From: a virus
Taxonomy: Duplodnaviria; Caudoviricetes
Length of the DNA: 24,358 nt
Virus record (IMG/VR): IMGVR_UViG_3300021963_000633
Coordinates: 1 to 24,358 of that record
Direction: 5' to 3' (one strand)
The stretch's first letter is position 1, and every line of letters begins with the position of its first letter. Position numbers and translations under genes: made by a program. This document shows, piece after piece, positions 1,007 through 24,358 of the stretch. Below the pieces are notes generated by a model, which was given only the letters and a program-made list of their open reading frames with translations, made no database searches and was not told the DNA's origin.

Positions 1007-3400
1007 ATGAATATATACACAAATACAAACAGTGCGTTTCCAAGTCAGGTGGTACCAGATTCGGTTAAAGCTTCTGAAGAGTATGGTTTACAGGTTTCTC
1101 GTGCTATCGAACAAGAATGGTTTGAGCAAGGTAGAACTACTCAAAATCGATACTTAACTAATTGGAATCAATTCCACCAATTAAGATTGTATGCAAGAGG
1201 AGAACAATCTATACAAAAGTATAAAGATGAATTAGCTACTAATGGTGATTTATCTTATCTTAATCTAGATTGGAAACCTGTTCCTGTAATATCTAAATTC
1301 GTAGACATTGTAGTAAATGGAATGTCTCAAAAATCATACGATATAAAGGCTTATGCTGAAGATCAAGAATCTGTAAAAAATAGAACAGAATACGCTAAGT
1401 CTATATTAAGAGACATGTATTCACAAGACTTGCTTAATAAAGCAAAATCTATAACAGGACTTGATTTTTCTGCTTCTCCATTATCAGCAGACGAGTTACC
1501 ACAATCAAAAGAAGAACTTGATTTACACATGCAGCTTTCTTACAAACAATCTATAGAGATTGCAGAGGAAGAAGCTATCAATAATGTCTTAGACAACAAT
1601 AAATGGGATTTAACTAGAAGAAGATTAAATTACGATTTAACTGTATTAGGTATTGCTTGTGTTAAAACAGAGTTTAATTTAAGTGAAGGAATTAAAACTA
1701 CTTATGTAGATCCTGCTTATTTAGTATATTCGTACACAGAAGATCCTAACTTTGATGATATATATTATGCTGGAGAAGTTAAAGCTATAACTATACCAGA
1801 ATTAAAGAAACAATTTCCTCACATATCTGATGAAGAATTATATAAAATTCAACAGATGCCAGGTAATAGACAGTACATTACTGGTTGGGGTAATTACGAT
1901 GAGAATACTGTTCAGATTTTATATTTTGAATATAAAACTTACATGAACCAAGTGTTTAAAATAAAATATGGAGAAAATGGCTTAGAAAAAGCTATTGAAA
2001 AAACAGATGATTTTAATCCACCTCCAAGCGATAATTTTGAAAGAGTATCAAGAACTATAGAAGTATTATACACAGGTGCTAAAGTACTTGGAACAAATAC
2101 TATGTTAGAATGGAAACTTTCTGAAAATATGTCAAGACCTTTTGCGGATACTACTAGAGTTCAAATGAACTATGTAATATGTGCGCCAAGAATGTATAAA
2201 GGTAGAATTGATTCTATAGTAAACAGAATTACTGGTTTTGCTGATATGATTCAATTGACACACCTGAAGTTACAACAAGTTATGTCTAGAATAGTTCCAG
2301 ATGGGGTGTTCTTAGATATAGATGGTTTAGCAGAAGTTGATCTAGGTAATGGAACTAATTACAATCCAGCAGAAGCATTAAATATGTATTTTCAAACTGG
2401 TAGTATAGTTGGTAGATCCATGTCACAAGACGGTGGTTTAAACCAAGGTAAAGTTCCTATTCAAGAATTAAACAGTTCTTCTGGTCAAGCTAAAATACAA
2501 TCACTTATAGAAACATATCAATACTATTTACAACTTATAAGAGATGTAACTGGATTGAACGAAGCAAGAGATGGTAGTAGTCCAGATAGAGATACATTAG
2601 TAGGATTGCAAAAGATGGCCGCTAATGCATCAAATACCGCTACGAGACATATATTACAAGCAAGCAGTTATTTGACTCTTAGAACTTGCGAGAACATCTC
2701 TCTTAGAATTGCTGATTGTTTAGACTTTCCTTTAACGGCTAAAGTATTAGAAGATAGTATTACTACTTATAATGCTGCTACGTTAAGAGAATTAAAAACA
2801 TTAAATCTTTATAACTTTGGTATATATCTAGAATTAGAACCAGACGAAGAAGAAAAAGCAATGTTAGAACAAAACATACAGATATGTTTACAAAGTGGAT
2901 CTATTGATTTAGACGATGCTATTGATATCAGACAAGTTAAAAACTTAAAACTTGCTAATCAATTACTTAAATTGAGAAAAGCAAAAAGACAAAAAGCTGC
3001 TCAAGAAGCTCAAATGGCTAATATTCAAGCACAAGCACAAGCTAATCAACAAACTGCTGAAAAAGCTGCTTTATTTGAAGTACAAAAACAACAAGCGTTA
3101 ACACAAGAAACTATAAACATAGAAACTGCAAAATCACAACTTAGTATGCAGAAACTACAGGTTGAAGCACAATTGAAACAACAAATGATGCAGAAACAAT
3201 TCGAGTATGATATGCAACTTGCTCAGATAAAAGCACAAACAGAAGCACAGAATATAAAAGAAGCAGAAGACAGAAAAGACGAAAGAACAAGAATTCAAGC
3301 TTCTCAACAATCTGAATTAGTTAATCAGAGAAAGAATAATGCAATGCCGTTAAATTTTGAATCTAGTGAGTTTACTGGATTACAAAATATGGGTATGTAA
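1007..3400 (+). CDS. Portal protein (crAss-like/P22-like, long C-terminal coiled-coil barrel)
   Basis: 797 aa, follows TerL. Motifs LRLYARGEQ, LDWKPVPVISKFVDIVVNG and IRDVTGLNEARDGS; Q/A/E/K-rich helical C-terminus. Confidence 0.9.
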   Translation: MNIYTNTNSAFPSQVVPDSVKASEEYGLQVSRAIEQEWFEQGRTTQNRYLTNWNQFHQLRLYARGEQSIQKYKDELATNGDLSYLNLDWKPVPVISKFVDIVVNGMSQKSYDIKAYAEDQESVKNRTEYAKSILRDMYSQDLLNKAKSITGLDFSASPLSADELPQSKEELDLHMQLSYKQSIEIAEEEAINNVLDNNKWDLTRRRLNYDLTVLGIACVKTEFNLSEGIKTTYVDPAYLVYSYTEDPNFDDIYYAGEVKAITIPELKKQFPHISDEELYKIQQMPGNRQYITGWGNYDENTVQILYFEYKTYMNQVFKIKYGENGLEKAIEKTDDFNPPPSDNFERVSRTIEVLYTGAKVLGTNTMLEWKLSENMSRPFADTTRVQMNYVICAPRMYKGRIDSIVNRITGFADMIQLTHLKLQQVMSRIVPDGVFLDIDGLAEVDLGNGTNYNPAEALNMYFQTGSIVGRSMSQDGGLNQGKVPIQELNSSSGQAKIQSLIETYQYYLQLIRDVTGLNEARDGSSPDRDTLVGLQKMAANASNTATRHILQASSYLTLRTCENISLRIADCLDFPLTAKVLEDSITTYNAATLRELKTLNLYNFGIYLELEPDEEEKAMLEQNIQICLQSGSIDLDDAIDIRQVKNLKLANQLLKLRKAKRQKAAQEAQMANIQAQAQANQQTAEKAALFEVQKQQALTQETINIETAKSQLSMQKLQVEAQLKQQMMQKQFEYDMQLAQIKAQTEAQNIKEAEDRKDERTRIQASQQSELVNQRKNNAMPLNFESSEFTGLQNMGM

Positions 3401-3412
3401 ATAAAAAACAAC

Positions 3413-3435
3413 TATTAAATTATATTATATTATGG
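3413..3435 (+). promoter_or_regulatory. Conserved 23-nt leader TATTAAATTATATTATATTATGG, copy 1
   Basis: Identical to 6155..6177; includes the ATG of the downstream gene. Confidence 0.6.
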
Positions 3436-4622
3436 AACAATCGATTAAACAAGAGGGTGAATTTAAAATGTCTAAACCTAAAAAACCTAGAAATCTAAAT
3501 AAAGTAGATAACATAGTAAAGGTTGAAATATTAGATGAACCAAAAACACAAGAACAAGAAATTCAAAAAGTAATAATCCCTAATACACCAGAAAATGCCA
3601 TTCAAGAGCAAAGCACAGAGAAAGGCGTGTTACGCACAGAACAATCCGAAGTGGAACTGCAAGCAATGGGACAAGGAAACGAAGAGTCCTTTGAAAATGT
3701 TATTCAAGAAATTACAGACGAAGAAATAAAAGTAGAGTCTGAAAAAATTGAACAAGAAGTAGAAAGACATATTCAGGAGCAAGTTAATACTGGAAAACCT
3801 TTACCACAAAACATCGAAAAGTTAGTTAGTTTCATGGAAGAAACTGGTGGTACTATAGAAGATTATATTAGATTAAATACTGATTATTCTAGTATAGATG
3901 AAAATACTTTATTAAGAGAGTATTATAAAAATACTAAACCTCATTTAGATAGAAGTGAAATTGATTTCTTAATGGAAGATAATTTTGCTTACGATGAGGA
4001 TTTAGATGAAGAGCGAGATATTAGAAAAAAGAAACTCGCATTTAAAGAAGAAGTTGTAAAAGCCAAAAAATTCTTAGAAAATGTTAAGGATAAATATTAC
4101 GATGAGATCAAGTTGAACTCTAATGTAAATCCAGAATATCAAGAAGCTTTTGACTTTTTCAACAGATACAAGAAGAACGAAGAGCAAACAAATGCACAAC
4201 GTGAAAGATTTAGAACTCAAACTAAAAATTTATTTAACAACGATTTCAAAGGTTTTGAATATAATGTTGGAGATAAGAGATTTAGATATGGCATTCAAAA
4301 TCCAGAACAAGTGGCAGAGAAACAATCGGACATCGCTAATTTTGTTGGGAAGTTCCTAGACAAAGACGGAAACGTCAACGATCAAGTAAGTTATCATAAA
4401 GCTCTTTACTCCGCTATGAATGCCGATAAGATTGCACAACACTTTTACGAACAAGGTAAAGCAGATGCAGTTAAAGAGGTTATTAACAATTCTAAAAACC
4501 CATCATTAGGCCAACCAAGACAAGCTCCTGGTGAAGTGTTTATAAACGGTTTAAAAGTTAAATCAATAAGTGGATTCGATTCTTCTAAATTAAAAATACA
4601 AACAAAAAAATTTAACAATTAA
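3432..4622 (+). CDS. Acidic capsid scaffolding/assembly-like protein
   Basis: 396 aa, E/Q/K-rich, disordered N-terminus and helical C-terminus, located between portal and MCP. Confidence 0.7.
   Translation: MEQSIKQEGEFKMSKPKKPRNLNKVDNIVKVEILDEPKTQEQEIQKVIIPNTPENAIQEQSTEKGVLRTEQSEVELQAMGQGNEESFENVIQEITDEEIKVESEKIEQEVERHIQEQVNTGKPLPQNIEKLVSFMEETGGTIEDYIRLNTDYSSIDENTLLREYYKNTKPHLDRSEIDFLMEDNFAYDEDLDEERDIRKKKLAFKEEVVKAKKFLENVKDKYYDEIKLNSNVNPEYQEAFDFFNRYKKNEEQTNAQRERFRTQTKNLFNNDFKGFEYNVGDKRFRYGIQNPEQVAEKQSDIANFVGKFLDKDGNVNDQVSYHKALYSAMNADKIAQHFYEQGKADAVKEVINNSKNPSLGQPRQAPGEVFINGLKVKSISGFDSSKLKIQTKKFNN
3595..3729 (+). CDS. Putative nested overlapping small basic protein, 44 aa (MPFKSKAQRKACYAQNNPKWNCKQWDKETKSPLKMLFKKLQTKK), +1 frame inside scaffold gene
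   Basis: ATG at 3595 in an A-rich context (GAAA-ATG), TAA at 3727-3729. The host frame is locally GC-richer with atypical codons. The N-terminus resembles small phage proteins that I recall beginning MPFKS(K/E)xQR. Confidence 0.6.
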   Translation: MPFKSKAQRKACYAQNNPKWNCKQWDKETKSPLKMLFKKLQTKK

Positions 4623-4633
4623 AAATTACAATT

Positions 4634-6094
4634 ATGGCAAATGTATTTCCAGAATTTGGATCTATTAAACCGTCTCAAAAGCAACAAGCTTTAGACACAA
4701 ACTATTTAAACTTTACGAGTGGAGCTAATGACTTTGCTCAACAATATTTACCAGAGATCTACGAAGCAGAAGTAGAGCGTTACGGAAACAGAACTTTATC
4801 TGGTTTCTTACGTATGGTAGGTGCTGAAATGCCTATGTCTTCTGACCAAATCGTATGGTCTGAACAAAACCGTTTACACATTGCTTACAACCAAGTATCT
4901 GTTACAGGTGCTAACGAATTAAAATTTGTTACTGGTGGTACTGGTTCTAACTTTGTAAACAACGTAATTTCTGTTGGACAAACTTTAGTTATTATGAGTC
5001 CTTCTACAGGAAAAGAACTTAAAGTATATGTAACAGCTTCAACTGCTAACCCATCTACTGGAGCTGGTGGTTCTACAAACCCAGCTGTTCTTACAGTTCA
5101 ACCTTATACTCAATCAGACTTAACAACTGGTGCAATTGCATTTCCTGTTACGACTGTTGGTAATGGAGATCTTAAAATCTTCGTTTATGGTTCTGAATTC
5201 AAAAAAGGAGACACAGACGCTACTTTAAACTCTGTAACTCCATCTTTCACTCAATATAGTAACTCTCCAGTTATTATTAAAGAGAAATACCAAATCTCTG
5301 GATCTGACACAGCTCAAATCGGTTGGGTTGAAGTTGCTACAGAAAACGGAGCAAGCGGATACTTATGGTATTTAAAAGCAGAATCTGAAACTCGTTTACG
5401 TTTTGAAGATTACTTAGAAATGGTTGTTATTGAAGGTGAATTAGCTACTAACTCAACTTTGACTGCTGCTAAAATTAAAGGTACTCAAGGTCTTTTCTCT
5501 GCTATCAAAGAAAGAGGAAATGTAGTTAACAATTTTACTGCTGCATCTGGTTTATCTGATTTCGATTCAATCTTGAAAAACTTAGATACTCAAGGAGCTA
5601 TTGAAGAAAACATGTTCTTCTTGAACAGAGCTACTTCATTAGATTTCGATGACATGTTAGCTTCTTTGTCTGCTGGTGCTGCTGGTGGTGTTGCTTACGG
5701 ATTATTCGAAAACTCTGAGCAAATGGCATTAAACTTAGGTTTCTCTGGTTTCAGAAGAGGTTCTTACGATTTCTACAAAACTGACTGGAAGTACTTAAAT
5801 GATGCTTCTACTCGTGGTGGTATGAATGTATCTAGTATCGATGGAGTTCTTATTCCAGCTGGTACAACTACAGTTTACGATCAACAATTAGGAACTAACA
5901 TCCGTCGTCCATTCTTACACGTTCGTTATAGAGCTAACCAAGCTGATGACAGACGTATGAAAAACTGGATCACTGGATCTGTTGGAGGAGCTTACACATC
6001 TGATTTAGATGCAATGCAAGTACACTTCTTATCAGAAAGATGTTTAGTTACTCAAGCTGCTAACAACTTCGTATTGTTCACAGCTACTGCATAA
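4634..6094 (+). CDS. Major capsid protein (HK97 fold, crAss-like)
   Basis: 486 aa. Motifs FAQQYLPEIYEAEVERYGNRT, WSEQNRLH, LNLGFSGFRRGSYDFYKTDWKYLND and HFLSERCL. Strong high-expression codon bias (TTC, ATC, AAC, CGT). Followed by a hairpin. Confidence 0.92.
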   Translation: MANVFPEFGSIKPSQKQQALDTNYLNFTSGANDFAQQYLPEIYEAEVERYGNRTLSGFLRMVGAEMPMSSDQIVWSEQNRLHIAYNQVSVTGANELKFVTGGTGSNFVNNVISVGQTLVIMSPSTGKELKVYVTASTANPSTGAGGSTNPAVLTVQPYTQSDLTTGAIAFPVTTVGNGDLKIFVYGSEFKKGDTDATLNSVTPSFTQYSNSPVIIKEKYQISGSDTAQIGWVEVATENGASGYLWYLKAESETRLRFEDYLEMVVIEGELATNSTLTAAKIKGTQGLFSAIKERGNVVNNFTAASGLSDFDSILKNLDTQGAIEENMFFLNRATSLDFDDMLASLSAGAAGGVAYGLFENSEQMALNLGFSGFRRGSYDFYKTDWKYLNDASTRGGMNVSSIDGVLIPAGTTTVYDQQLGTNIRRPFLHVRYRANQADDRRMKNWITGSVGGAYTSDLDAMQVHFLSERCLVTQAANNFVLFTATA

Positions 6095-9078: not shown

Positions 9079-12000
9079 ATGGCTGAAGTAAAAAATAGTT
9101 TCTTACAATCTAAAATGAATAAAGATCTAGATGATAGACTTATTCCAAACGGACAGTACAGAGACGCTTTAAATATATCTGTTGGTAAAGCAGAAGATAA
9201 AGATATTGGTGCTTTAGAAGGTGCTCTTGGTAATGAGTTTATGGTTGATACCAATAATCCAAACCTAGTGTGTATTGGTAAAGTGGCTGATAATCAGAAC
9301 AATAGAGTATTTCAATGGTGGACAGATTATACTGCGCCTCAAAACGACTTATATGCTTTACCAGATATAAACACTACTGTTGACATGAGAATAACTATGT
9401 ATGTTCCAAATGGTTCATCTGGTACATTAACAACTCTTGTTTCTGGTAGTTTTTTAAATCTAGCAACAAATTATCCTTTTAGAGTAATAGGAGCAAATGT
9501 ATTAGAGAATTTATTATTTTGGACTGATAATAGAAATCAACCTAGAAAAATAAATATAGAGACTGCTATAAATAATAATAATTATTATACAGAAGAAGTT
9601 CAAATATCTGTTGCTAAATATTCTCCAGTAACACCAATGAGTGTTTACTCTGTTGTTCCAGTAACTACTACATCAGTAGGAGTAATACCAACTAGTCCAA
9701 CTGGAAATCCACAATCAATATCGTTTAATGTTTCTAGTTTAGATGCTGCTAAATTAAGTTTAGGAATGCAACTATTGTATCCTTCTGTAGTGCCTACTAA
9801 CAACTTAGACGTAATAGACTATGCTGTTATAACAAAGATATCTGGAACAAATATAACGGTATCAATACCACAAAGATCACCGGCTGTTAGTTTACCTTCT
9901 GGAAGTGCGTTAACTTTCTACGGAACAACAATGTCTAATCAAGCAGATAACCCTAATTGGTCAGGAGATCCAAATTACCTTAAAGATAAATTTGTAAGAT
10001 TTAGTTATAGATATAAATTTGATGATGGTGAATATTCATTAATGGCACCGTTTACTCAGATTATGTTTATACCTAATCAGAATGGTTATTTCTTGAATGG
10101 AGACGAACAAGACGCGTATAGAAGTACCGTTGTTACTTGGTTCGAAAACTATATAAACAATATAGTATTACATGTTGAATTACCAGATACTGGAAACAAT
10201 ATTAGTAGTTCTTATAAAATTGCAAGTATAGACATACTTTACAAAGAATCTGATTCAAACGCTGTTCAAGTTGTAGAAACTGTTTCGCTTAATCAAATAG
10301 CAACTGTAGCAGGTAACTCTTCAGATTACTATTATACATATAAATCTCAAAAACCATATAAAACATTACCAGAAGCTCAAACAGTTAGAGTTTATGACAA
10401 AGTTCCAATTAGAGCAAGAGCTCAGGAGATTTCTGGAAATAGAGTTATATATGGTAACTATATAAATCAAAACACACCACCTGCTAGTTTAGATTATAAC
10501 CTAGCAATAATACAAAAACAACCACCTTATAGTTCTTGGGTAGAATATCCAAATCATACTTTAAAACAAAACAGAAATTATCAAGCTGGTTTTATTTTAG
10601 CAGATAAATTCGGAAGACAATCTTCTGTTATTTTATCATCTAACGATTTAACTGTTACTTCTGGTGGAACTACTTTTGTTGGTTCTACTATATACTCTCC
10701 TTATTTCACTGATGCAAATAACCTCGATGTTAAAGATTGGAGAGGTAATACATTAGCTTTAATACTTAACACGCCAATAGTTTCTAGCATTAATCAAGGA
10801 GCAGGAACTCCTGGTTTATATGCTGTTGTAGATGGTATAGATAATAATACAAATGGATTTCAAATAACAGGAACAGGATTAGTAACTGGTAATACTTTTA
10901 CATGTAATCTAGCTGCGTCTCCTGCACAAAGAAATTATCCAGAGGTTGGTAATTATCTAAGAGGAAAATATAAAGACTATGTTAAAGTTTTAACCGTTGC
11001 TACTTTTGGTTCTCCAACTGTTACTGGTTTTGTTTTAACAGCGGATGGCGATATAAGCGAAAATTACAATCTAACAGGAGTAAGTCCTGATATAAAATAT
11101 TCTTATAAGATAAATCCAATGGGTTGGTATTCATATAAGATAGTCGTTAGACAACAACAACAAGAATACTATAATGTTTATTTACCGGGCATGTTAAATG
11201 GTTACCCTATGTACCAAACAACAACGGCTCCTGGTACTTGGCCTACTGCTGCCGCTAATCCAACTATATTCCCTACAGATGAAGTTGACAAGACTGCTCA
11301 CGTGGTATTAATAAACGACAACATAAATAAAATACCTAGAGACTTAACAGAGGTTGGTCCAGATCAAAAACAATACAGAAGTAGTGTTCAACTGTTCGGT
11401 AGAGTAGAAAACGCCTTAGATTCAACGATAACGTTTAATAGACAGTATTATCCGGCAAGAAAACCAGATGTAGCTTCGACTATATCTTCTGCTAATGATT
11501 TAAAGTTTTTACCTACTAACGATCCAAATAACTTATATGGAACTGCTTCTAATAACTTTTATCAATTAAGTACTACTCCTATAATCGCTAGAATTTCTAC
11601 GGTTAATGAGATAGGTGTAATAGGAAGTACAACAACTCCTGGAACTCCAGATACGGACTTCACTATGAATCCTTTTTTAGGCGTTTATGAAACTTCTCCA
11701 TTTATTTCTTCTCTTGAGATATTTTGGGAAACTTCATCTGCTGGTCTTATATCTGATTTAAACGAAGCGGTGTTAAAGGTTTATAACTCTGCTGTTAATT
11801 TTGATTTATTCACTTATACACATAATGAATTTCAAGATCCAAATGGGGTTGGTACAACACCTGGCGCTAGTAATTCTAGATTCATAACTAACAATTTTCA
11901 ACCAGTTAACGCTTCTGGAGCTTTAATGACTACTGTTAACAACATAGTTATGACTGTTAAGGATTTGACTGGAGCTGATAGAACTAGTAATTTTGAATTA

Positions 12001-13227
12001 GTGTACCAAACAGGTTATAAATACGCTATTAGAATAAACAATGCATTTAATTATTTAACAGATGCAGCGACAAAGGAAAGATATATATTTACTTTCAATA
12101 TATTTGATGTTACTAATGGAAATAGTGTTATAACTAAAACCGGAAGTTTAAGTAATTCCACGCCTGTTATTACAGCTCCAACATTACCACTTCCTGTTCC
12201 ACCATTATATAGTGTTATACTATCGAATCCTCCTGTTTTGGGTTCTGTGTATCAATGTACTGGTACGAATGGAGCACCTAGTGTAGTTGGTAATCCTAGT
12301 TTTAATCAACAACAATTAAGATGGAGTATATTAAATACTTCTACTCCTAGTGATTATGCTTCTTATTTTAGTATAAACGAAACTACTGGAACTATTAGTT
12401 TGTTAGATGTAACTATACCGAATAACTTACCTTATACATTGGATATTAGGTTAACAGACACGTATGATTTTGCTACTAATTCAAACGGAGTTGGTTCATT
12501 ATATGCTGATACTCAGTTGAGTATAATAAGAGCAATAGGCGAGAATAATTGTGAGGAATGGGATTGTGTTGTAAGTGATGGTATACATCCTACTTTATTT
12601 ATTAGAAACACAACATCTGGTTATTTTAATTTCTGGAGAGAATTTTTTCCTGGTGAAACTATAGATGTAGCAAATACATCTGTTAGAGTTGTAAGTTATG
12701 ATTCTTTAAGTGAAACCTATAGTGCTCCTTATAGAAGTATAACAGGAGGTGATTCTACTTACTTTTATCAAGGTTGGTTAGATTTTACTAATGCAGAAGA
12801 TTTTGAAGCCAGTTTTAACGTTCAAAATAGTCAAGGTATAGAAGATGATCAATCACCAACTGTTAGCCTGCATGTAGTTGGTACTATAAGAGTTTTACCT
12901 TCTGGAAGATATATAAACGTTGATTTTATAAGTCAAAACACTGCTTACGATTCAATGACTAGAACATCAAGTGCTAGCACGTGTAACGTAGGATCACCTA
13001 AATACTTGTCTCCTTTATTAACAGGTTGGCAATTAACTAATTCTGGTTCAACACCAATAACTTGGAACGCTTTAGTAAATTCTGGAACTGGTTATTCCGT
13101 AATAGGAGGTAATTTAAATCCAGGAGCCACAGTAGCTAGTACTGGACTTGGAGGTACATATCCATGTATACACGTTGACTCTTTAACTTACGCAGACGGA
13201 GGAGTAGCAACCTTTGCTACGTGTTAA
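9079..13227 (+). CDS. Tail stabilization / muzzle protein, N-terminal part (P22 gp10-like beta-propeller) with Ig/cadherin-like C-terminal additions
   Basis: 1382 aa; starts SKMNKDLDDRLIPNGQYRDALNI; LLFWTDNRNQPRKINI, FSYRYKFDDGEYS and GNRVIYGNY; T/S/N/G-rich. Confidence 0.8.
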   Translation: MAEVKNSFLQSKMNKDLDDRLIPNGQYRDALNISVGKAEDKDIGALEGALGNEFMVDTNNPNLVCIGKVADNQNNRVFQWWTDYTAPQNDLYALPDINTTVDMRITMYVPNGSSGTLTTLVSGSFLNLATNYPFRVIGANVLENLLFWTDNRNQPRKINIETAINNNNYYTEEVQISVAKYSPVTPMSVYSVVPVTTTSVGVIPTSPTGNPQSISFNVSSLDAAKLSLGMQLLYPSVVPTNNLDVIDYAVITKISGTNITVSIPQRSPAVSLPSGSALTFYGTTMSNQADNPNWSGDPNYLKDKFVRFSYRYKFDDGEYSLMAPFTQIMFIPNQNGYFLNGDEQDAYRSTVVTWFENYINNIVLHVELPDTGNNISSSYKIASIDILYKESDSNAVQVVETVSLNQIATVAGNSSDYYYTYKSQKPYKTLPEAQTVRVYDKVPIRARAQEISGNRVIYGNYINQNTPPASLDYNLAIIQKQPPYSSWVEYPNHTLKQNRNYQAGFILADKFGRQSSVILSSNDLTVTSGGTTFVGSTIYSPYFTDANNLDVKDWRGNTLALILNTPIVSSINQGAGTPGLYAVVDGIDNNTNGFQITGTGLVTGNTFTCNLAASPAQRNYPEVGNYLRGKYKDYVKVLTVATFGSPTVTGFVLTADGDISENYNLTGVSPDIKYSYKINPMGWYSYKIVVRQQQQEYYNVYLPGMLNGYPMYQTTTAPGTWPTAAANPTIFPTDEVDKTAHVVLINDNINKIPRDLTEVGPDQKQYRSSVQLFGRVENALDSTITFNRQYYPARKPDVASTISSANDLKFLPTNDPNNLYGTASNNFYQLSTTPIIARISTVNEIGVIGSTTTPGTPDTDFTMNPFLGVYETSPFISSLEIFWETSSAGLISDLNEAVLKVYNSAVNFDLFTYTHNEFQDPNGVGTTPGASNSRFITNNFQPVNASGALMTTVNNIVMTVKDLTGADRTSNFELVYQTGYKYAIRINNAFNYLTDAATKERYIFTFNIFDVTNGNSVITKTGSLSNSTPVITAPTLPLPVPPLYSVILSNPPVLGSVYQCTGTNGAPSVVGNPSFNQQQLRWSILNTSTPSDYASYFSINETTGTISLLDVTIPNNLPYTLDIRLTDTYDFATNSNGVGSLYADTQLSIIRAIGENNCEEWDCVVSDGIHPTLFIRNTTSGYFNFWREFFPGETIDVANTSVRVVSYDSLSETYSAPYRSITGGDSTYFYQGWLDFTNAEDFEASFNVQNSQGIEDDQSPTVSLHVVGTIRVLPSGRYINVDFISQNTAYDSMTRTSSASTCNVGSPKYLSPLLTGWQLTNSGSTPITWNALVNSGTGYSVIGGNLNPGATVASTGLGGTYPCIHVDSLTYADGGVATFATC

Positions 13228-13260: not shown

Positions 13261-14871
13261 ATGGCAGCAACTATAGAAATAAAATATTATAATTCATTTT
13301 GGTTAAAGAAAATGGATAGTATAACCAAAGTAGCTCCAACTGTAGTTGCTGGAATACTTACGGTTGGAACTGGTTCTATAGGAGACAACTACTTAAAAGT
13401 TGCTTTGGCTTCTGCTCCAGATTCTACAGTATACGGTCCAGGTCAAAGAATAAGTTGGACTATAGCAGGAAACAATTATGAAAACATAGTTACATACGTT
13501 ACTTCAGACGCTACTTATACTTACTTTACGTTATACAACAATTTAACAGTTGGAGTACCTTCTGGAACTACTATAAACTTAGGTAAAATAATTGATTACG
13601 ATTTCTTACCTAGTCAATATATTAGTGCTACTGGTGGATCGTCACAAGATTGGTATATAGAAGAAGCTAGAATAAGAGGCGGTTATAATAATACAACTGT
13701 TGATTTTGGAGTTAAAGCTTACACTGTAGAAGAAAACAATCAGAGAGAAGATCTAACTAATAGATTAATATATTCTGGCGTGTTTAATTCTAGAACAGGT
13801 ATAAACAATACTAATCAATTCTCTGTAGCAGAAGATATAACTAGAACATTAGATCCAGCGAATGGTTCAATACAAAAACTATACGCTGAGGACACTAACT
13901 TAACTGTTTTCCAAGAGTTGAAAGTTAGTAGGGCTTTAATAGATAAAAGCGCTGTGTATGCGGCTGATGGTATGCCTTTAACAACTTCTGGAATAGACGT
14001 AATAGGTCAAGTTCAAAGTTACGCAGGTAATTACGGTATAGGTAAGCATCCAGAGAGTTTCGCCGTATATGGATATAGAAAATACTTTGTAGACACATAT
14101 CAGAATGTTGTTTTAAGATTATCTCAAGACGGTATAACTGAAATATCTGATTATGGTATGTTTGATTACTTCAGAGATAAACTATCAGATAGTAACCTAC
14201 AAAATGGTTATATATACGGTATTTGGGATATACACAACAAACAATATGTAGTGTCTATACAACCTACAAAAACTGTTTCAAATGTTTTAGTAATAGATGA
14301 AGCAAATAGTGTTACAGCAAGTTTTGATGAGGATAGTTCAGGATGGACTAGTTTTCATAGTTACATACCAAATGATGGTGTGAGTTTAAGAAATTACTTA
14401 TACACATTTAAAAATGGTTCTATATGGAAACATTATTCAGAATTAGTTAATAAAGCTAATTTCTATGGAATTCAATATCCATCAACAGTTTCTATTGTTT
14501 TCAATCCTCAAGTGTCACAATCTAAGTCGTTCTTGACTATTAATTATGAAGGAACATATAATTGGAGATTATCTAACTTCTCTACTGAAACAGACATATC
14601 GGTTCCAGTTAGTCAATACTTTTCAGCATCGACATTAGTGGGATTGGAAGACCAACTTTTTGAAAATAGATTTAAAAAGAAAGAAAATAAATATTTTGCA
14701 AATATATTAAATACTTCTTTACCTGGTGAAAATGAAATAATATGGGGTCAACCTTATATAACTGGAGTTAAAGGGTTTTACGCTAACGCAACATTACAAT
14801 GTGATCATAACAATAATGACAAATCAGAGTTATTTGCTGTATCTGCAGAATACATAGAATCATCATATTAA
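13261..14871 (+). CDS. Tail stabilization / muzzle protein, C-terminal part
   Basis: 536 aa; IEEARIRGGYN, LIYSGVFNSRTGINNTNQFS, YAGNYGIGKHPESFA, LRLSQDGITEIS, GWTSFHSY and FKKKENKYFANI. Confidence 0.75.
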   Translation: MAATIEIKYYNSFWLKKMDSITKVAPTVVAGILTVGTGSIGDNYLKVALASAPDSTVYGPGQRISWTIAGNNYENIVTYVTSDATYTYFTLYNNLTVGVPSGTTINLGKIIDYDFLPSQYISATGGSSQDWYIEEARIRGGYNNTTVDFGVKAYTVEENNQREDLTNRLIYSGVFNSRTGINNTNQFSVAEDITRTLDPANGSIQKLYAEDTNLTVFQELKVSRALIDKSAVYAADGMPLTTSGIDVIGQVQSYAGNYGIGKHPESFAVYGYRKYFVDTYQNVVLRLSQDGITEISDYGMFDYFRDKLSDSNLQNGYIYGIWDIHNKQYVVSIQPTKTVSNVLVIDEANSVTASFDEDSSGWTSFHSYIPNDGVSLRNYLYTFKNGSIWKHYSELVNKANFYGIQYPSTVSIVFNPQVSQSKSFLTINYEGTYNWRLSNFSTETDISVPVSQYFSASTLVGLEDQLFENRFKKKENKYFANILNTSLPGENEIIWGQPYITGVKGFYANATLQCDHNNNDKSELFAVSAEYIESSY

Positions 14872-14886
14872 ATAAAATTAAATTAA

Positions 14887-15297
14887 ATGGAATTAAAAAT
14901 AAGAAATTTACAGGAATCAGATTGGGATACATTAGTTAGTTGGTGGATGTCTAGAGAAGAATGGCAAATACACCCAGCTAAAGAGATGTTACCAATGAAT
15001 GGAATCGGCGGACTAATGGTTGAATGTGAAGATCAACCAGTAGTAGCTGGTTTCTTATATTTGACTAATTCTAAGATAGCTTGGATGGAATGGATAATAT
15101 CTGATAAAAACTATAAAAAAAGAAATAAAAAAGAAGCTATAGAATTATTAATAAATTCATTAGAACAAGTAGCTAAAAGTACAGGTGCTGAAATGATATT
15201 TAGTGTAAGTCAAAATAAGAGTTTGTTAAAAACACATGAAAACTTAGGTTATACCATAGATAAAACACCTTCACATGAAATTTCAAAAAAAATATAA
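14887..15297 (+). CDS. GNAT-fold acetyltransferase-like protein (position equivalent to T7 gp13 / P22 gp14)
   Basis: 136 aa; IRNLQESDWDTL helix, VVAGFLY strand, WIISDKNYK, LLINSLEQVAKSTGA and LLKTHENLGY follow GNAT topology. Confidence 0.7.
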   Translation: MELKIRNLQESDWDTLVSWWMSREEWQIHPAKEMLPMNGIGGLMVECEDQPVVAGFLYLTNSKIAWMEWIISDKNYKKRNKKEAIELLINSLEQVAKSTGAEMIFSVSQNKSLLKTHENLGYTIDKTPSHEISKKI

Positions 15298-18049: not shown

Positions 18050-21000
18050 ATGGAAGAGGTATATTCATTGTCAGACGGAACACAGGTAGATTTATCTAAC
18101 TACTCAGATTTCGAAAGAATTAATTTCTTAATGGAGAATCCAGGTGCAAAAAAGTTAAAAGGCGTTGCGAAGAGTGCGGGCGTGATGCCAAAAAAGAAAG
18201 CACAAGATACGGGATCCAAGCGGGTAAGTGGTTCTTCGGGTTCTCAAAAATATAGGTTAGCAAACGAAGATGATTTAGAGATAATGCAGAAAAGAGGAGA
18301 AGCTCCTCCTCCTTCTGCTTATCCTAAATCAAATGTAGATGTTAACAATATATATGGTAATAAAACTAACTTTAATAAAGATTACCAAGAATTAAAAGCA
18401 TATTTAGGTAAAGGAGACTACAAACAAAGATTAGAAACTTTACCAAAAGATAAAAAAACAAAAAGCACAAAAGATTTATATACTTTGAAACAAAACTCTA
18501 CTGAACATGTAGATAGTGTTAACGAGATAGCAAATCTTAAGAAAAAAATACAGGAAACAGATTCTGACTTAGAACATCCTTATTTATATTATTCTTCTAA
18601 AAACCAATGGGAAGGAGACGACTTTATAGATCAAAATTATAATAGATCAGAATTAGAAGATTTAGGCATTAATACAGAAGACTTTGATGGATACTTAAAT
18701 AAGAATGGATATAAACAGGATTATTTAGATAAGAAGCAAAGAGGTCTTTACGATGGAGAAGGTTCTAACTTCATGACTGGATACAACTATAAGTTAGCTG
18801 ATGAACTTGCTAAGAAACGTATGTTAAACATGTATATGGATAATATGCAACGTCGTGATTATACTAAGCAAGATTTAAACGAAGAAATAGAAGTAGTATC
18901 TGGTAAAAAGAAAGAAAAAGAAATAGTAAATAGATCTTTATTCGATCAAAATAAAACAATAGCTTACGTTGAAAAAAACTATCCAAATGTAACTCAAAAG
19001 TTAAAAGAGAGAGACATTGAAAACGCTAGGTTATATGAAGAATCTAAAAAAGGTTCATCTGACTTTTGGTCTTGGGATACTCCTGGAAAGATAGGTAAAG
19101 CTGGATGGAATGCTGTTGTAGATAGATTAGATCAAGTAAGTCCAGTTGTTTACGAAAAATTAGGAATGGAAGATACCGCAGAAGGTATTAGATTGAATGC
19201 AGAACAAACTCAATTATCTAGACCAGAAGAAAGAGGTTATGCTTACGCTTCTGGTAAATTAGTTAATTATGATGGTACTGATTACATAGTTGATTCTAAA
19301 GGACAAATATACGACAAAGACGCTAAGATTAGAGTAACTGACTTATTAAGTAAAAACAGTTATGAAAAAATATTAATTGATTCTAAAAACGCTCCATCAG
19401 ATTGGACTTTTAGTGGTCAAGGCGCGGCAACCCAAACAGCTAGTGTTATGGGTGATATGATTATTCAAGCTGCTTTAACTCGTGGGATTGGAGAGTTTGG
19501 CGCTATAGCCACAGAAACAAGATTAGCTTTGAATGGAGCTCAAAAAGCAAATAGATTTTCGTCCTTATTAAACGATACTTCTAGTGCGTTAAAAATGATA
19601 CCACTACAAAGAGCAGAAGGTTATTCTATGGTTGCTCAAGGTGCATTAGGTTATACACAAGGGTATGAAGAAACTTTAAAAGCAGCGAGAGATAATGGAA
19701 TAACAGATAAAGAAGCTTTTAAATTAGCTTCATCTGCTGCCCAAAGATTAGCTGTATTATATAGTTCTACAGGTGCTATAAACCCTCAGACTCAAGTTGC
19801 TGATAATTTGTTTGGTTCTAAGAACATAATAAAACAAGCTATCGATCAATATACTAAAAAAGGAGAGAAAGGTTTTGTACAATATTTAGACGATATAATT
19901 AAGAATGCACCTAAAAATGCTATTGAATTTGCAGAAGAAGGAGCGAAGGAAGTTGTTCAAGAAAACATACAACAAGTAGGTGAAATTGGAGCTAATAAAA
20001 TAACAAACGTTGAGGCTGGTAAAAAGATAATGAATGATACCATGTCTGCTGACGATTTTGTTAATACCTCTATTTTATCATTTATATCTTCTGGTTTAAT
20101 ATCTAAGGCTAAATTACCTACTTTTAATTCTTCAGATCAAGATGTAGATGATTTAGGTTCTTTAAGTACACTAGCTAAAAATAAAAAAGAGTTTACTAAA
20201 ATAATAGATGGTTTAGTTGATCAAAAAGTATTTACAATTGAAGAAGCAACTAACTTAAAGAAAGATGTAGATATTTACGCTGATAATGTAAATAAGTTAC
20301 CTAAAAATGTCTCTCCTAAATCAGCAATGCCGATTATGAAAGAATTAGATAAAGTAACTAAATTAGAAAATCAAAAACAATCTACAGATAAGGCTTTTCA
20401 TGATGAGATTGATCTACAGATAGAAGGTATTAGAAATAATGTAAAAGAAATATTTTACAAAGATCAATTAGAAGCTAAAAATAAATCTATAATAAAAGCT
20501 TTAGAAAAAGGTATTGTAAAAAATACAGAATTTAAGACTTTTAAAAACACTCAACAATTAGAAGAATATCTTGTAAATAATTACAACATGAAACCTAAAG
20601 ACGCTAAGTTTAACGCGGCTAATAAAGGTGTTTTTCTTAACTCACAATATTTAAATGATGTTTCTGAAGGAGGTGTTGAAATACCTGAAGGAAAGAAATT
20701 TATATTTATAAATGAAGAAATAGCTTCTAAAAGAGGTGATTTTTCTGTAGGTCAACATGAATTCTTACATGCTCTTATGCATGAGACTTTAAAAGACGAT
20801 CCTGAGGCAAAAAAACTACTAGGTACAGCTCTTACAAAAGAGTTAATGAAAGTAGATACTTTATTAAAAGCAGAAGGTAAAGAAGATGTAGTTGTACCAA
20901 AAGAGTATGCTCAAAAATTAGGAGCTTACAAAAGATTTTATGACGAACAGAATAACAATTTGTTCGATGAAATGGACGACTATTATAACGATTATAAGGA

Positions 21001-24000
21001 AGGTAAGATAACTAAAGAAGAGTACGATACTAAAAAATCTGAAATCCAAACAGAAATAGATAGTAACACTGGAGACATGTGGGAAGAAGCACTTAATTTA
21101 TACTCTGACGCTATTAGTCAAGGTTTAGTTAAGTACGACGAAGGAACAATGAATCGTTTAAAAGATACTATAAGACAAGTACTTCAATTCTTAGGAATAA
21201 AAGACGTAAAATTCGAAACAGGTAGAGATGTTTATAATTTCTTAAAAGACTACAATAACAGTGTTAATTCTGGAAATTGGGGTCTTGGCATGAGAAAAGT
21301 AGGAAAAGGTAGTGTTGAAATAAATAAAGAATCTTTAAGAAAAGAAACAGGAGTTAAAGAACCTGTAAAGAAAAAAGAAGAACAAACAACAGTATCTAAA
21401 CCTAAATTCTCTTTATCAGAAAGAAAATCTTCTGAAGAAATTAAGAAGGATGTAAATAAAAATTACAACAAAGAACTATGGAGTAGTGGAAGTAATTCAA
21501 AAGATGAAAATCCAGCTATCAATAGAGTAATGTTTGATATATTAAATGAATACGAATATATAATTAAAGGTAAAGCAAAAGGATTGGGATATGTAAATCT
21601 ACCTGATTTTAGTGAAATGGATTTCATTAGTGAAACTTCACTAGCTATGATACCTCTTATTCGTAACTTTAATAAAGAGTTCTTTCAAAAAAGAGAAGAA
21701 TACAAAAAGGAACTAGAAGCAAAAGGTTTAGATCCTAAAAGCGAAGAGTTTAAAGAGAAACTAGAGGTTCAAGACGAAAAAGGTTATCAAGGTAAAAAAG
21801 GCATCGTAAAAGAAAACAAAGATCTAAACGCTTATATAAATTCGCAATTAGGTAATAAAATGAAAGATGCTCTTAAATCTGGAAATGTAACCTCACAATT
21901 GTTTACAGACGACATACAAGGAGAAGGATTTAAGGAAACTAGAGTATTAGCTGATTATGCTGGAGATACTGGAGAAGAATCTGACTTTTTAGATGAATCG
22001 GATAGTGTATTCAATGCTGAACAAGATTTTGAAGAAGAACAAAGTAATCTTGCTGTTTTATTGAGCGATCCAGTGTTTAACTTTGTAGATGAACAAGGTA
22101 AACCTATAAACATTGAAACAGTACCTTTTGGTGGTTTCTTTGTTACAGAAGCCTCAGATCCAACCGTTGCTGCTAATATAAAACTAAAAACAGAAACAGA
22201 TCCTGCTAAAATAGCAGATTTGAATAGACAATTAAAAGAATTAGAAAGAGGTTTAGAATTACAATCTAAAAAAGATAGAACTCCAGAAGAAAATGAAGAA
22301 TTAAAAAAATTAAAATCTTTTAAATCTTATGATCTTTCAACTGGAATGATGGTAAACACGTTTGAAGCTCTTTCTGTTCAAGATACGCCAGCTAAAATCA
22401 TTTCTGATGAGGTTGGACGTGAGATATTAAGATCTCCAAACATTGAAACTCTAGAATATAGAAACTTCAAAGAAAGATTATCATTTTTATCTAAGACTAT
22501 GGCAAGAAGAATGACTTTCAAGAACGGTCCAGAAATAGAGTCTTTAATGTACAATCAATGGAAGTTATTATACGATGTTATAAATAATCCTGTTGATCAA
22601 GTTACTGGAGAATCTAGTTATGCTTCTAAAAAATTACCACCTAGATTAAAAGAAACAGACGAAAAAGGTGATATCAAAAAAATAGAAGATATAAGTAGAG
22701 TAAAATTCTTACAATCTTACTATGGAATAGACGATGCCACTAGAATTATAAAAACTTATGGTGGTGAAAATGCCAGTGAAGAATTAAAACAATTTGAAGA
22801 TTCTGAATTAAGTGAAAAGGATGGTGGTAAATTAAGACCTACAACTTATTTCGATAGAAGAACAGCTTTAATGGAATTGTTTGGTGATGTTTTAGTTTTA
22901 CAAGAAGCTAGAAGATTAATTAGACAACCTGAATTCTTAGATAGAGTTGCAGAACGAAACGTTAATTTGGCAAATGATTTAAAGAACGAAGTTATTAGAG
23001 CTAAAGTTCTTGATGATATGGCAAAAGGTAAGAGTAGTGTTGTTAAATTTAGTTTAGCAGAAGAAGAAAATGGTAGATTATCTAGTTTCTTAGAAGGACT
23101 TCCTTTTACTGAACAATGGACAGTTGCAAGAGATATAGATAACGCTATTAAAAACGCTAAAATTGCTGATGGAACTAAAGTAACATTTAAAGTACCAAGT
23201 AGATCTAAATTCTCAGATAAACAAACAGCTTACTTCTTAATACAGAAAGTAGCAGATGGTTATAATGACTTTGAGTTTAAAGTTAAGAAAAATGCAAATG
23301 GAACTTTAACTAAACAAGTTTTAGAAGCTCTTGATTATAAGTCAAAGAAATACCAAGAAATCGTAGAGAAGAATAATAATATCGAGAAAACAATAAACGA
23401 TATTATAGAAGAAAACAAAGGAGTTAAATCAGAAGAAACATTCTCTCCTGAAACTGCTAAGAATTTAGGTAAGAACGTTGGTAAACATAAAATTTATTTA
23501 CCACCTGAAGACGAAGACTTCGAAGGACTGCTATACACGTTAGCAAGCGCTAAAGGTGTTAAAGGTGAGGAACAACTTGAGTTTCTTAGAAACACATTGT
23601 TAAAACCATATAGTGATGCAATGCTTAACTTAATGAAAGCTAGGCAAACAATGTATAAAGACTGGACTGACTTAATAAACAAGAAACACAAAGGAATAAG
23701 TAAAATACTTAAACAAGATTCTGGTTATGGCGGTTACTTGTATGATCAAGCAGTTAGGGTTTACTTATGGAAAAAAGCTGGTTATGAAATACCTGGTTTA
23801 GATAAAAAAGATATATTTAACTTAGTTGAAAAAGTAAGAACTGATCCTAAATTAAGAAAGTTCGCTGATGACGTTTCTTTACTTTCTAAACAAGCTAATG
23901 GTTGGACAGAACCTGGTCATAATTGGGGATTTGGTTCAGTAGTTGGAGATATTAATAATATTATATCAAAATCAAATAGAACTAAATACTTAGAACCTTG

Positions 24001-24358
24001 GACTAAAAATATTGAAAAAGCTTTCTCTAAAGAAAACATGAGCAAGATAGAAGCTATATACGGTAGAAAATACGTAACAGCTTTAAAAAATGCTCTAGAT
24101 AGAATGAAAACCGGAAGTAATAGAATAGAAGGTTCTAACGATAGCTTTTTAAATTGGTTAAACGGAGCTACAGCGGTAACAATGTTTGCTAATATGCGTT
24201 CTGCTTTACTTCAAACTTTAGGTGCTGTCAATTTTATCAACACGTCTGATAATAACATATTAAAAGCAGGAGCAGCGTTATTAAACGTACCTCAGTATAC
24301 TAAAGACTTTTTTACAATATGGAATTCAGATTACCTTAGAGATAGAAGATCTGGCTTA
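18050..24358 (+). CDS. Giant virion cargo / polyvalent protein (at least 2103 aa, 3'-truncated) with zincin metallopeptidase domain
   Basis: ATG at 18050 (AAATT-ATG). The frame reads MEEVYSLSDG... to ...WNSDYLRDRRSGL at the window end and I found no stop. Has Gly/Ala hydrophobic segments near 19400-19780, EEGAKEVVQE, HEFLH at 20756-20770 and a distal WEE at 21080-21088. Confidence 0.88.
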   Translation, partial: MEEVYSLSDGTQVDLSNYSDFERINFLMENPGAKKLKGVAKSAGVMPKKKAQDTGSKRVSGSSGSQKYRLANEDDLEIMQKRGEAPPPSAYPKSNVDVNNIYGNKTNFNKDYQELKAYLGKGDYKQRLETLPKDKKTKSTKDLYTLKQNSTEHVDSVNEIANLKKKIQETDSDLEHPYLYYSSKNQWEGDDFIDQNYNRSELEDLGINTEDFDGYLNKNGYKQDYLDKKQRGLYDGEGSNFMTGYNYKLADELAKKRMLNMYMDNMQRRDYTKQDLNEEIEVVSGKKKEKEIVNRSLFDQNKTIAYVEKNYPNVTQKLKERDIENARLYEESKKGSSDFWSWDTPGKIGKAGWNAVVDRLDQVSPVVYEKLGMEDTAEGIRLNAEQTQLSRPEERGYAYASGKLVNYDGTDYIVDSKGQIYDKDAKIRVTDLLSKNSYEKILIDSKNAPSDWTFSGQGAATQTASVMGDMIIQAALTRGIGEFGAIATETRLALNGAQKANRFSSLLNDTSSALKMIPLQRAEGYSMVAQGALGYTQGYEETLKAARDNGITDKEAFKLASSAAQRLAVLYSSTGAINPQTQVADNLFGSKNIIKQAIDQYTKKGEKGFVQYLDDIIKNAPKNAIEFAEEGAKEVVQENIQQVGEIGANKITNVEAGKKIMNDTMSADDFVNTSILSFISSGLISKAKLPTFNSSDQDVDDLGSLSTLAKNKKEFTKIIDGLVDQKVFTIEEATNLKKDVDIYADNVNKLPKNVSPKSAMPIMKELDKVTKLENQKQSTDKAFHDEIDLQIEGIRNNVKEIFYKDQLEAKNKSIIKALEKGIVKNTEFKTFKNTQQLEEYLVNNYNMKPKDAKFNAANKGVFLNSQYLNDVSEGGVEIPEGKKFIFINEEIASKRGDFSVGQHEFLHALMHETLKDDPEAKKLLGTALTKELMKVDTLLKAEGKEDVVVPKEYAQKLGAYKRFYDEQNNNLFDEMDDYYNDYKEGKITKEEYDTKKSEIQTEIDSNTGDMWEEALNLYSDAISQGLVKYDEGTMNRLKDTIRQVLQFLGIKDVKFETGRDVYNFLKDYNNSVNSGNWGLGMRKVGKGSVEINKESLRKETGVKEPVKKKEEQTTVSKPKFSLSERKSSEEIKKDVNKNYNKELWSSGSNSKDENPAINRVMFDILNEYEYIIKGKAKGLGYVNLPDFSEMDFISETSLAMIPLIRNFNKEFFQKREEYKKELEAKGLDPKSEEFKEKLEVQDEKGYQGKKGIVKENKDLNAYINSQLGNKMKDALKSGNVTSQLFTDDIQGEGFKETRVLADYAGDTGEESDFLDESDSVFNAEQDFEEEQSNLAVLLSDPVFNFVDEQGKPINIETVPFGGFFVTEASDPTVAANIKLKTETDPAKIADLNRQLKELERGLELQSKKDRTPEENEELKKLKSFKSYDLSTGMMVNTFEALSVQDTPAKIISDEVGREILRSPNIETLEYRNFKERLSFLSKTMARRMTFKNGPEIESLMYNQWKLLYDVINNPVDQVTGESSYASKKLPPRLKETDEKGDIKKIEDISRVKFLQSYYGIDDATRIIKTYGGENASEELKQFEDSELSEKDGGKLRPTTYFDRRTALMELFGDVLVLQEARRLIRQPEFLDRVAERNVNLANDLKNEVIRAKVLDDMAKGKSSVVKFSLAEEENGRLSSFLEGLPFTEQWTVARDIDNAIKNAKIADGTKVTFKVPSRSKFSDKQTAYFLIQKVADGYNDFEFKVKKNANGTLTKQVLEALDYKSKKYQEIVEKNNNIEKTINDIIEENKGVKSEETFSPETAKNLGKNVGKHKIYLPPEDEDFEGLLYTLASAKGVKGEEQLEFLRNTLLKPYSDAMLNLMKARQTMYKDWTDLINKKHKGISKILKQDSGYGGYLYDQAVRVYLWKKAGYEIPGLDKKDIFNLVEKVRTDPKLRKFADDVSLLSKQANGWTEPGHNWGFGSVVGDINNIISKSNRTKYLEPWTKNIEKAFSKENMSKIEAIYGRKYVTALKNALDRMKTGSNRIEGSNDSFLNWLNGATAVTMFANMRSALLQTLGAVNFINTSDNNILKAGAALLNVPQYTKDFFTIWNSDYLRDRRSGL
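18148..18203 (+). other. Candidate programmed -1 ribosomal frameshift element
   Basis: In-phase A_AAA_AAG (18148-18154), 6-nt spacer, stem GGCGTTGCG(18161-69)/CGTGATGCC(18181-89), loop GTGC complementary to GCAC at 18200-03. A second in-phase A_AAA_AAG sits at 18190-96. Confidence 0.65.

Follow-up and report, generated by a model that had tools for sequence, protein, structure and literature searches.

Whether a small basic gene can lie wholly inside the putative scaffold gene of a tailed phage, and whether such a gene was born there or brought in ready-made, is the question raised by positions 3595..3729 of the window, that is, the whole 24,358-nucleotide stretch of IMG/VR record IMGVR_UViG_3300021963_000633 analysed here. 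A sequence-only reading had placed an overprinted gene of 44 aa at this site. The window is a 24-kb contig covering part of an Elemovirus-like phage of Bacteroidota, a virus for which completeness was estimated at 38%. Its nearest cultured relatives are the Flavobacterium elemo phages, Maribacter phage Panino, and Cellulophaga phages, with 27–48% identity in the portal and capsid proteins.

A terminase gene lies upstream of a block formed by the portal gene (1007..3400, + strand; phrog_6547, E 1.7e-145), the host gene of the nested ORF (3432..4622, + strand; 396 codons, in the scaffold position), and the probable major capsid gene (4634..6094, + strand; phrog_13704 virion structural protein, E 8.8e-96), whose product is 40% identical to its elemo ortholog. 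The host protein consists of a conserved N-terminus, an acidic linker that carries the nested gene, and a conserved C-domain from approximately codon 124. Because this 396-aa protein had no PHROG, Pfam, or PDB match, we infer that it is a scaffold from the position of its gene between the portal and capsid genes and from the acidic composition of the linker; the elemo ortholog is annotated merely as a 'structural protein'. Elsewhere in the window, the tail module contains a crassvirus muzzle-protein C-terminal domain (13261–14871; PF25729, E 6e-9) and an acetyltransferase-like gene (14887–15297), and a 37-aa +1 ORF of raised GC content (0.46) was seen at 11198–11311 inside gene 9079–13227.

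Composition, conservation, and frame-specific selection of the nested ORF

The ORF was recovered exactly as the sequence-only reading had described it, with an ATG at 3595, a TAA ending at 3729, and the same 44-aa translation (3595..3729, + strand). It lies in the +1 frame of host ORF 3432–4622, covering host codons 55–99, and belongs to the Cys/Trp subtype of the MPFKS..Q..W family. The composition was also as reported, with a basic peptide (net charge +11, pI 10.2) set in an acidic host stretch (net charge −10 over codons 55–99) and a GC content of 0.41 vs 0.30 in the remainder of the host gene; just 3.5% of the contig's 135-nt windows have a GC content equal to or above that of the nested ORF. 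An open frame per se was rejected as evidence for a gene, because the +1 frame stays open by chance in approximately 12% of synonymous redraws of the host protein. The +1 frame was open in 32 of 545 37-codon windows of the host C-domain, and four further nested +1 ATG ORFs (36–55 aa) occur in the window. Conservation, unlike the mere open frame, is beyond chance.

Homologs were taken as the best 80 of 596 confirmed IMG/VR loci, chosen by host protein alone, together with the window (n = 81). Preservation of the ATG and of an open +1 frame across scaffold homologs, which had been proposed as a check on the nested gene, was evident in this set: 67 of the 81 start with M-P-[FIL]-[KR] at the same place, and the nested ORF is intact (36–52 aa) in 66, broken by a stop after 10 residues in one, and absent from 14. 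The linker is shorter in these 14 homologs (median 107.5 vs 123 residues to the first conserved motif), two of which kept an open remnant of the nested frame. One subclade (L050, L061, L069, and L074) displays a decay series, comprising a premature stop after 10 codons, shortened remnants starting with MTYKS, and a start-less remnant. Four residues (M1, P2, Q8, and W25) never vary among 34 aligned nested copies, which span four subtypes. A second conserved nested gene was looked for and not found; 10 of the 67 had unrelated ORFs.

Selection was compared in both frames. Across 84 distinct cores, with codons fixed by the search pattern left out, pN/pS was 0.395 in the peptide frame vs 0.985, i.e., near 1, in the host frame across the nested gene. 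In 204 pairs drawn from the host-protein-selected set at ≥75% C-domain identity, host codon positions 1, 2, and 3 differed by 0.210, 0.088, and 0.078 in the nested core and by 0.091, 0.063, and 0.259 in the host C-domain, respectively, figures that are descriptive because the sequence pairs are non-independent. Variation in the nested core is concentrated at host position 1, which is the wobble position of the peptide, and the same signature was found in giant hosts, described below (0.310/0.168/0.108 in 90 pairs and 0.421/0.321/0.233 in 45 pairs). The conserved 30-codon core (3595..3684, + strand), where variation falls at the third codon position of the peptide, is followed by a variable lysine-rich tail (3685..3729, + strand) under weaker constraint, with a host position 3 to position 1 ratio of 0.98. 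A tail motif, [SGAN]P[LF][KR]M (3685–3729 in the window), recurs in approximately half of the scaffold-hosted copies.

The suspicion that the AIQEQST stretch of the host protein is a shadow of the nested gene proved well founded, since all four invariant host residues are forced by the peptide codons and stop avoidance. The host frame crosses the nested ORF stop-free and the host N-terminus is conserved, so both frames look translated. To judge from these sequence comparisons, the nested frame is the more constrained of the two overlapping frames, and the ORF at 3595–3729 is a real nested protein-coding gene, conserved and under frame-specific selection. Loci L226 and L231 have zero DNA differences over 28 codons of the nested core, and their upstream host flank differs at 36% of third positions, which suggests either strong constraint or recent exchange.

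Host genes of the nested copies and their history

The peptide had been linked to the acidic scaffold as its co-expressed partner, and this link turned out not to be specific. Homologs of the window peptide occur in the elemo phages (68 records; 77% identity) and in the Manatee Spring phage (68% identity). In the two records examined, they occupy the +1 frame of a giant late gene (approximately 3700–3900 codons) and leave the same shadow sequence. The elemo host of the nested copy is a 3694-codon gene, with the nested ATG at position 53458 of NC_062741, and the scaffold-position gene of the cultured elemo phages is without a copy. Part of a giant late gene is also present in the window (18050..24358, + strand; cut by the contig end); relatives of this gene carry the nested gene in other phages of the group, and no family copy was found within the part contained in the window. 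Among 80 loci found with the peptide, a set that overlaps the 80 loci selected by host protein, the host was the scaffold-position gene in 71 and the giant gene in nine. Thirty-one giant hosts fell into four blastp clusters, two of which matched DarB-like or polyvalent-protein families. Four genomes (91–100% complete) carry a nested copy without a homolog of the window's scaffold or capsid protein; thus, nesting also occurs in unrelated phage groups. Every unambiguous nested host was a late head-region gene or a giant late gene.

Three genomic states were observed within one phage group, namely in the scaffold gene, in the giant late gene, and free-standing. The free-standing copy (L249:3001-3153) belongs to G062, a member of the window's own group whose capsid protein is 53% identical to that of the window, and is the last gene of the operon, separated by 9 nt from the giant late gene upstream. 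In a FastTree phylogeny of the host C-domain, rooted on Panino alone and computed without a topology test, 124 scaffold-hosted or copy-less tips formed one clade (support 0.87). The giant-hosted genomes were placed outside it and were paraphyletic, with the free-standing case among them. With its one outgroup, this tree suggests that the gene may have moved from the giant gene to the scaffold gene, with a separate exit. The scaffold-hosted clade includes 11 losses or breaks of the nested gene, and its 12 subtype changes, vs a minimum of 3, point to repeated swapping. The elemo scaffold C-domain is just 40% identical to that of the window. No copy was detected in the related cultured phages Panino, phi38:1, and phi13:2. 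Five fragments without the scaffold copy had none elsewhere, and the four checked also lack the giant-gene segment searched. The scaffold-position genes of L301 and L306 have long open +1 linker stretches (73 and 81 codons, respectively) and no MPFKS copy there.

The word 'overprinted' in the sequence-only reading implied a gene born de novo in the scaffold gene. This was not borne out: the family extends well beyond the host gene, occurring also in other hosts or alone. A de novo overprint would be younger and more narrowly distributed than the gene around it, and here the reverse holds; the nested gene probably arrived by capture or relocation of a ready-made gene. We give almost no credence to the view that the ORF is a de novo overprint, a by-product of base composition or of an RNA element, whose resemblance to other proteins is convergent. 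An acidic linker does yield a lysine-rich +1 frame that is open by chance at the rate given above, but variation falls at the wobble position of the peptide frame, the elemo copy, despite its different host gene, shares 94% identity with the scaffold-hosted copies L139 and L141 over 35 codons, and thousands of stand-alone relatives exist.

Extent and genomic states of the family

The window peptide conforms to the motif MP[FILY][KR]S..Q, with W approximately 15–17 residues on, and has a profile score of 83 bits. A profile of the nested copies matched 2370 clusters (50% identity, E ≤ 1e-3), and 96 of the best 150 clusters are of ≤95 residues. The protein database gave only three close relatives where DNA searches show dozens. 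Pfam domains were present in just 3 of 149 family members (lysozyme, YkuD, and DUF3140). The resemblance to stand-alone MPFKS..Q..W proteins, which the sequence-only reading had proposed, was real: 40 of 80 viral loci were free-standing, and FlowerPower gp48 of a Streptomyces phage scored 42 bits, within a range of 42–58 bits over the family profiles.

Stand-alone relatives were located in the late operons of FlowerPower, S-CBS2, Barnyard, P-RSP2, C75C1, and Troje; FlowerPower gp48 and Barnyard gp9 are annotated and the other four are unannotated. FlowerPower gp48 and the S-CBS2, P-RSP2, C75C1, and Troje ORFs share the same core (with the MP start in all except Troje) and lie in late or head-region operons, but unlike the nested copies they are free-standing, with their own start and stop. 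The family also appears to be distantly linked to phrog_1375, the actinophage family of Barnyard gp9 and Patience gp10, which was matched by 28 of 149 family members (E ≤ 1e-4, best 2e-8) and by 6 of 34 nested copies; the window peptide itself had no match. Barnyard gp9 scored 20–27 bits on the family profiles vs at most 8.4 bits in 1000 shuffles. Patience gp10 scored 5–6.5 bits, no better than shuffles, was missed by a second family profile search, and is tied to the family through Barnyard gp9 only (62% identical). Members of phrog_1375 and phrog_5320 (Barnyard gp9, Patience gp10, and cluster B mycobacteriophage gp~75) resemble the nested copies in being small and very basic with an F[KR]S..Q....[WY]A..P..A..W core; they differ in having a basic extension before the motif and no MP start, and the members inspected are stand-alone genes.

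Of the 80 viral loci found with the stand-alone subtype, 40 carry the gene alone and 31 have it fully nested in +1; at 4 loci it overlaps the 3' end of another gene in +1, at 5 it is fused, and at none does it lie in +2. Of the fully nested calls, 27 were solid (7 scaffold and 20 giant hosts). The others (L195, L216, L225, and L274) may be chance open frames and were left out of the solid count; the 'host' of L195 is a terminase gene that probably starts downstream. Among 80 genome loci there was one '+2 nested' call (L385, GC 0.62), which is also probably due to chance. In L209, L213, L224, L272, and L315, the peptide gene overlaps just the last 28–41 codons of the upstream gene in +1, and these loci are possible intermediates between the free-standing and nested states. 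An origin of the +1 bias in stop codons of the other frame was refuted by stand-alone genes, in which the +2-host and +1-host frames were open in 28/37 and 5/37 and had unavoidable stops in 11/131 and 0/131, respectively. Our guess is that a more acidic, less hydrophobic shadow underlies the preference.

The gene is present once per genome. Of 43 records searched, 29 matched, each with a single strong copy, and the other 14 were fragments; one record had a 15-bit second match. Another record set gave a single strong copy in 13/13.

In GTDB genomes, 117 stretches matched the family, and among the 80 listed nearly all were in scattered MAG contigs. A conserved stand-alone subfamily occupies 15 soil MAG loci, mostly of Acidobacteria, several on contigs of 0.2–3.8 Mb (e.g., L379:1501-1668). 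In three of the 18 loci examined (L379, L382, and L388), this cellular subfamily adjoins Ku and a UdgX-like uracil-DNA glycosylase gene, a neighbourhood that fits a general DNA association and equally a cellular target; the neighbours at other loci of the L368–L388 subfamily were unrelated, cellular-looking genes.

Sequence searches of PDB found no true homolog of the peptide; matches to designed beta-propellers were sums of 2–5-bit repeats and were rejected, and matches to a cyanophage cAMP phosphodiesterase and a Klebsiella capsid (E > 0.5) were treated as noise. DUF3008 (PF11450), which likewise comprises small basic proteins, was the nearest named cluster by language-model features (0.88 and 0.87, below 0.9); it was rejected, with no Pfam match for any member tested.

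Translation start, proposed product, and relation to known systems

The likely internal translation start region (3574..3594, + strand) has no Shine-Dalgarno (SD) sequence and has A at −3 and at −12/−13. In the Bacteroidota group, an SD-like motif preceded 0/19 and 1/51 nested starts, and A at −3 preceded 14/19 and 43/51, vs 70/161 other +1 ATGs. Bacteroidetes are described as lacking SD sequences and using A at −3 instead (PMC6847099). In phages without the scaffold homolog, an SD-like motif was found before 9/10 nested copies vs 34/465 other +1 ATGs of the same genes. These signals are sequence enrichments only, in a region that the E/K/Q codons of the host frame also make A-rich. As far as such enrichment indicates, the start signals follow the initiation mode of the presumed host, with the hosts of uncultured phages being predicted ones, and the nested ORF is very probably translated by internal initiation. 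Two RNA runs contained small shares of the sequence and ended before reaching the nested ORF.

One cluster representative (P0005) joins the host N-terminus to the peptide, and three database proteins (P0003, P0019, and P0043) begin with the peptide and continue in the host frame; these joins may be natural frameshifts or assembly errors. Such joins would be expected if ribosomes translating the host gene slipped into the nested frame by a +1 frameshift, so that a basic tail was appended to the scaffold N-terminus and the nested frame had no start of its own. We consider this very improbable, since ATG-Pro is kept in 67/67 copies, the nested copies begin exactly at the start of the stand-alone genes, and the start signals match the presumed host. 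In L362:1501, the peptide frame reads after nine codons like the shadow frame of the family, as if frameshifted inside the copy.

An AlphaFold2 model of the peptide (pLDDT 77.6, pTM 0.45) contained predicted helices at residues 6–15 and 22–30 (pLDDT approximately 84) and a weaker third helix at 32–41. In the explanation we propose, the nested gene belongs to a family of small basic phage proteins that is both old and widespread, and sits in the +1 frame of the linker; the peptide would be made from its own start on the late mRNA. Read in the host frame, this stretch would be an E/Q/S-rich linker that is tolerated, with avoidance of stops as its sole constraint. The two-helix core, with its Pro-Phe-Lys N-terminus and lysine tail, would associate with the packaged genome and neutralise charge, acting as an accessory, dispensable internal head protein, and the module fused to larger proteins would carry them into the head or onto DNA. 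That a conserved old family gene lies in the acidic linker, with its own start on the late mRNA and a product likely to bind DNA in the head or during assembly, is on balance probable. The narrower proposal of an accessory, DNA-associated, capsid-internal peptide, in which DNA binding is read from charge and context only, is evenly poised. More tentatively, an overlooked single-copy family may pass as a cassette from the acidic linker of one late gene to that of another, unrelated one, almost always in +1, carrying a host-type initiation signal, swapping subtypes, and stepping out free, with a protamine-like genome-condensing product common to thousands of lineages of tailed phages and to some soil bacteria; this remains conjectural as a whole.

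The late-operon hosts speak for a role in the virion. So does the presence, within the four closest ORFs, of a head or tail gene at 14 of 37 stand-alone loci (three near-duplicates left out), in a count without background control; ten of the other 23 had neighbours with other functions only, and 13 had unknown neighbours. The placement of the phrog_1375 gene far from the structural genes in cluster B mycobacteriophages speaks against it, as do the 11 losses or breaks on the tree and the three related cultured phages in which no copy was detected. The product could instead act in the infected cell on a pan-bacterial target, such as the nucleoid, the ribosome, or a repair or stress factor, and remain unpackaged. 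The position of the cluster B copies outside the structural module, the occurrence of the family in phages of three phyla (Bacteroidota, Cyanobacteria, and Actinomycetota) whose head proteins are unrelated, and the stand-alone subfamily in soil MAGs are in line with such a role. We nevertheless regard it as rather unlikely, because all unambiguous nested hosts are late head-region or giant late genes and no ArfA or ribosomal-protein family matched any member in Pfam or NCBIfam (for ArfA, no family at E ≤ 1 for 34 members in Pfam or 89 in NCBIfam).

Mass spectrometry of Patience gp10 also bears on this choice. Tryptic mass spectrometry under-detects K/R-rich peptides, which weakens a low particle count as support for an unpackaged product. 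PMC4324244 lists gp10 as a virion protein, among very basic particle proteins, and Table S1 of that paper gives seven stringent peptide counts, indicating that it is translated. Its single stringent count in particles, vs 30–153 for neighbours and 4+2 in infected cells, favours action in the cell (PMC4324244 Table S1). The accessible text of PMC11965321 contains no mention of gp10. Patience genes 111 and 10–13 (L303:1682-3287) encode very basic, protamine-like small proteins right after the portal gene, most of which were found in particles by mass spectrometry.

A third possibility is that the module is a head-targeting or capsid-binding peptide, whose Pro-Phe-Lys and Trp dock on the capsid, portal, or scaffold and which serves as an address tag when fused to enzymes. 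Consistent with this, the motif begins at residue 1 in 130 of the best 150 matches, 37 of which exceed 150 aa, the fusion partners include a phage lysozyme and an L,D-transpeptidase domain, and the residues that never vary are M, P, Q, and W, none of them basic. The motif, however, also occurs in phages without detectable capsid similarity and in apparently cellular loci, across which a single protein pocket would be hard to conserve, and there is one copy per genome rather than a spread over many cargo proteins. We therefore judge a docking role improbable, and the DNA-associated head protein is retained as the preferred product.

Textbook nested phage genes arise by overprinting and remain in place. 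In phiX174, D is an external scaffold and E lies in its +1 frame. Gene E inside gene D is a small gene wholly within another on the same strand (PMC8227390). Unlike the gene described here, which is older and wider than its host and more constrained, E is a lineage-specific overprint encoding a lysis protein. Lambda Rz1 lies in Rz, and spanin pairs can be embedded, overlapped, or separated. Spanins thus also provide one gene family in nested, overlapping, and separate states, but the spanin host is always the functional partner, whereas the hosts of the peptide differ and are non-homologous, and neither a lipoprotein signal nor a hydrophobic stretch is present in the peptide. Patience genes 91 and 20 have same-strand embedded ORFs shown to be translated, which, according to the authors in the sections available, have weak or no conservation and no relatives, in contrast to the conserved peptide and its large family (PMC4324244).

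Nested phage genes are already known; the difference here is a pre-existing family in several non-homologous hosts, nearly always in +1, in single copy, and with the nested frame more constrained. A literature search, with most subscription journals and bioRxiv supplements outside its scope, found no paper describing this nested gene. An old gene swallowed by, and apparently moved between, different host genes offers a naturally occurring test case for a second way in which genes come to overlap. Gene callers miss the nested copies, and the two elemo and Manatee records opened show the host gene alone. The cultured elemo phages on Flavobacterium BAL314, with their 77% identical copy, make the function of a large family testable; in these phages, the host codon lying across the nested start codon can be altered without much consequence for the host protein.
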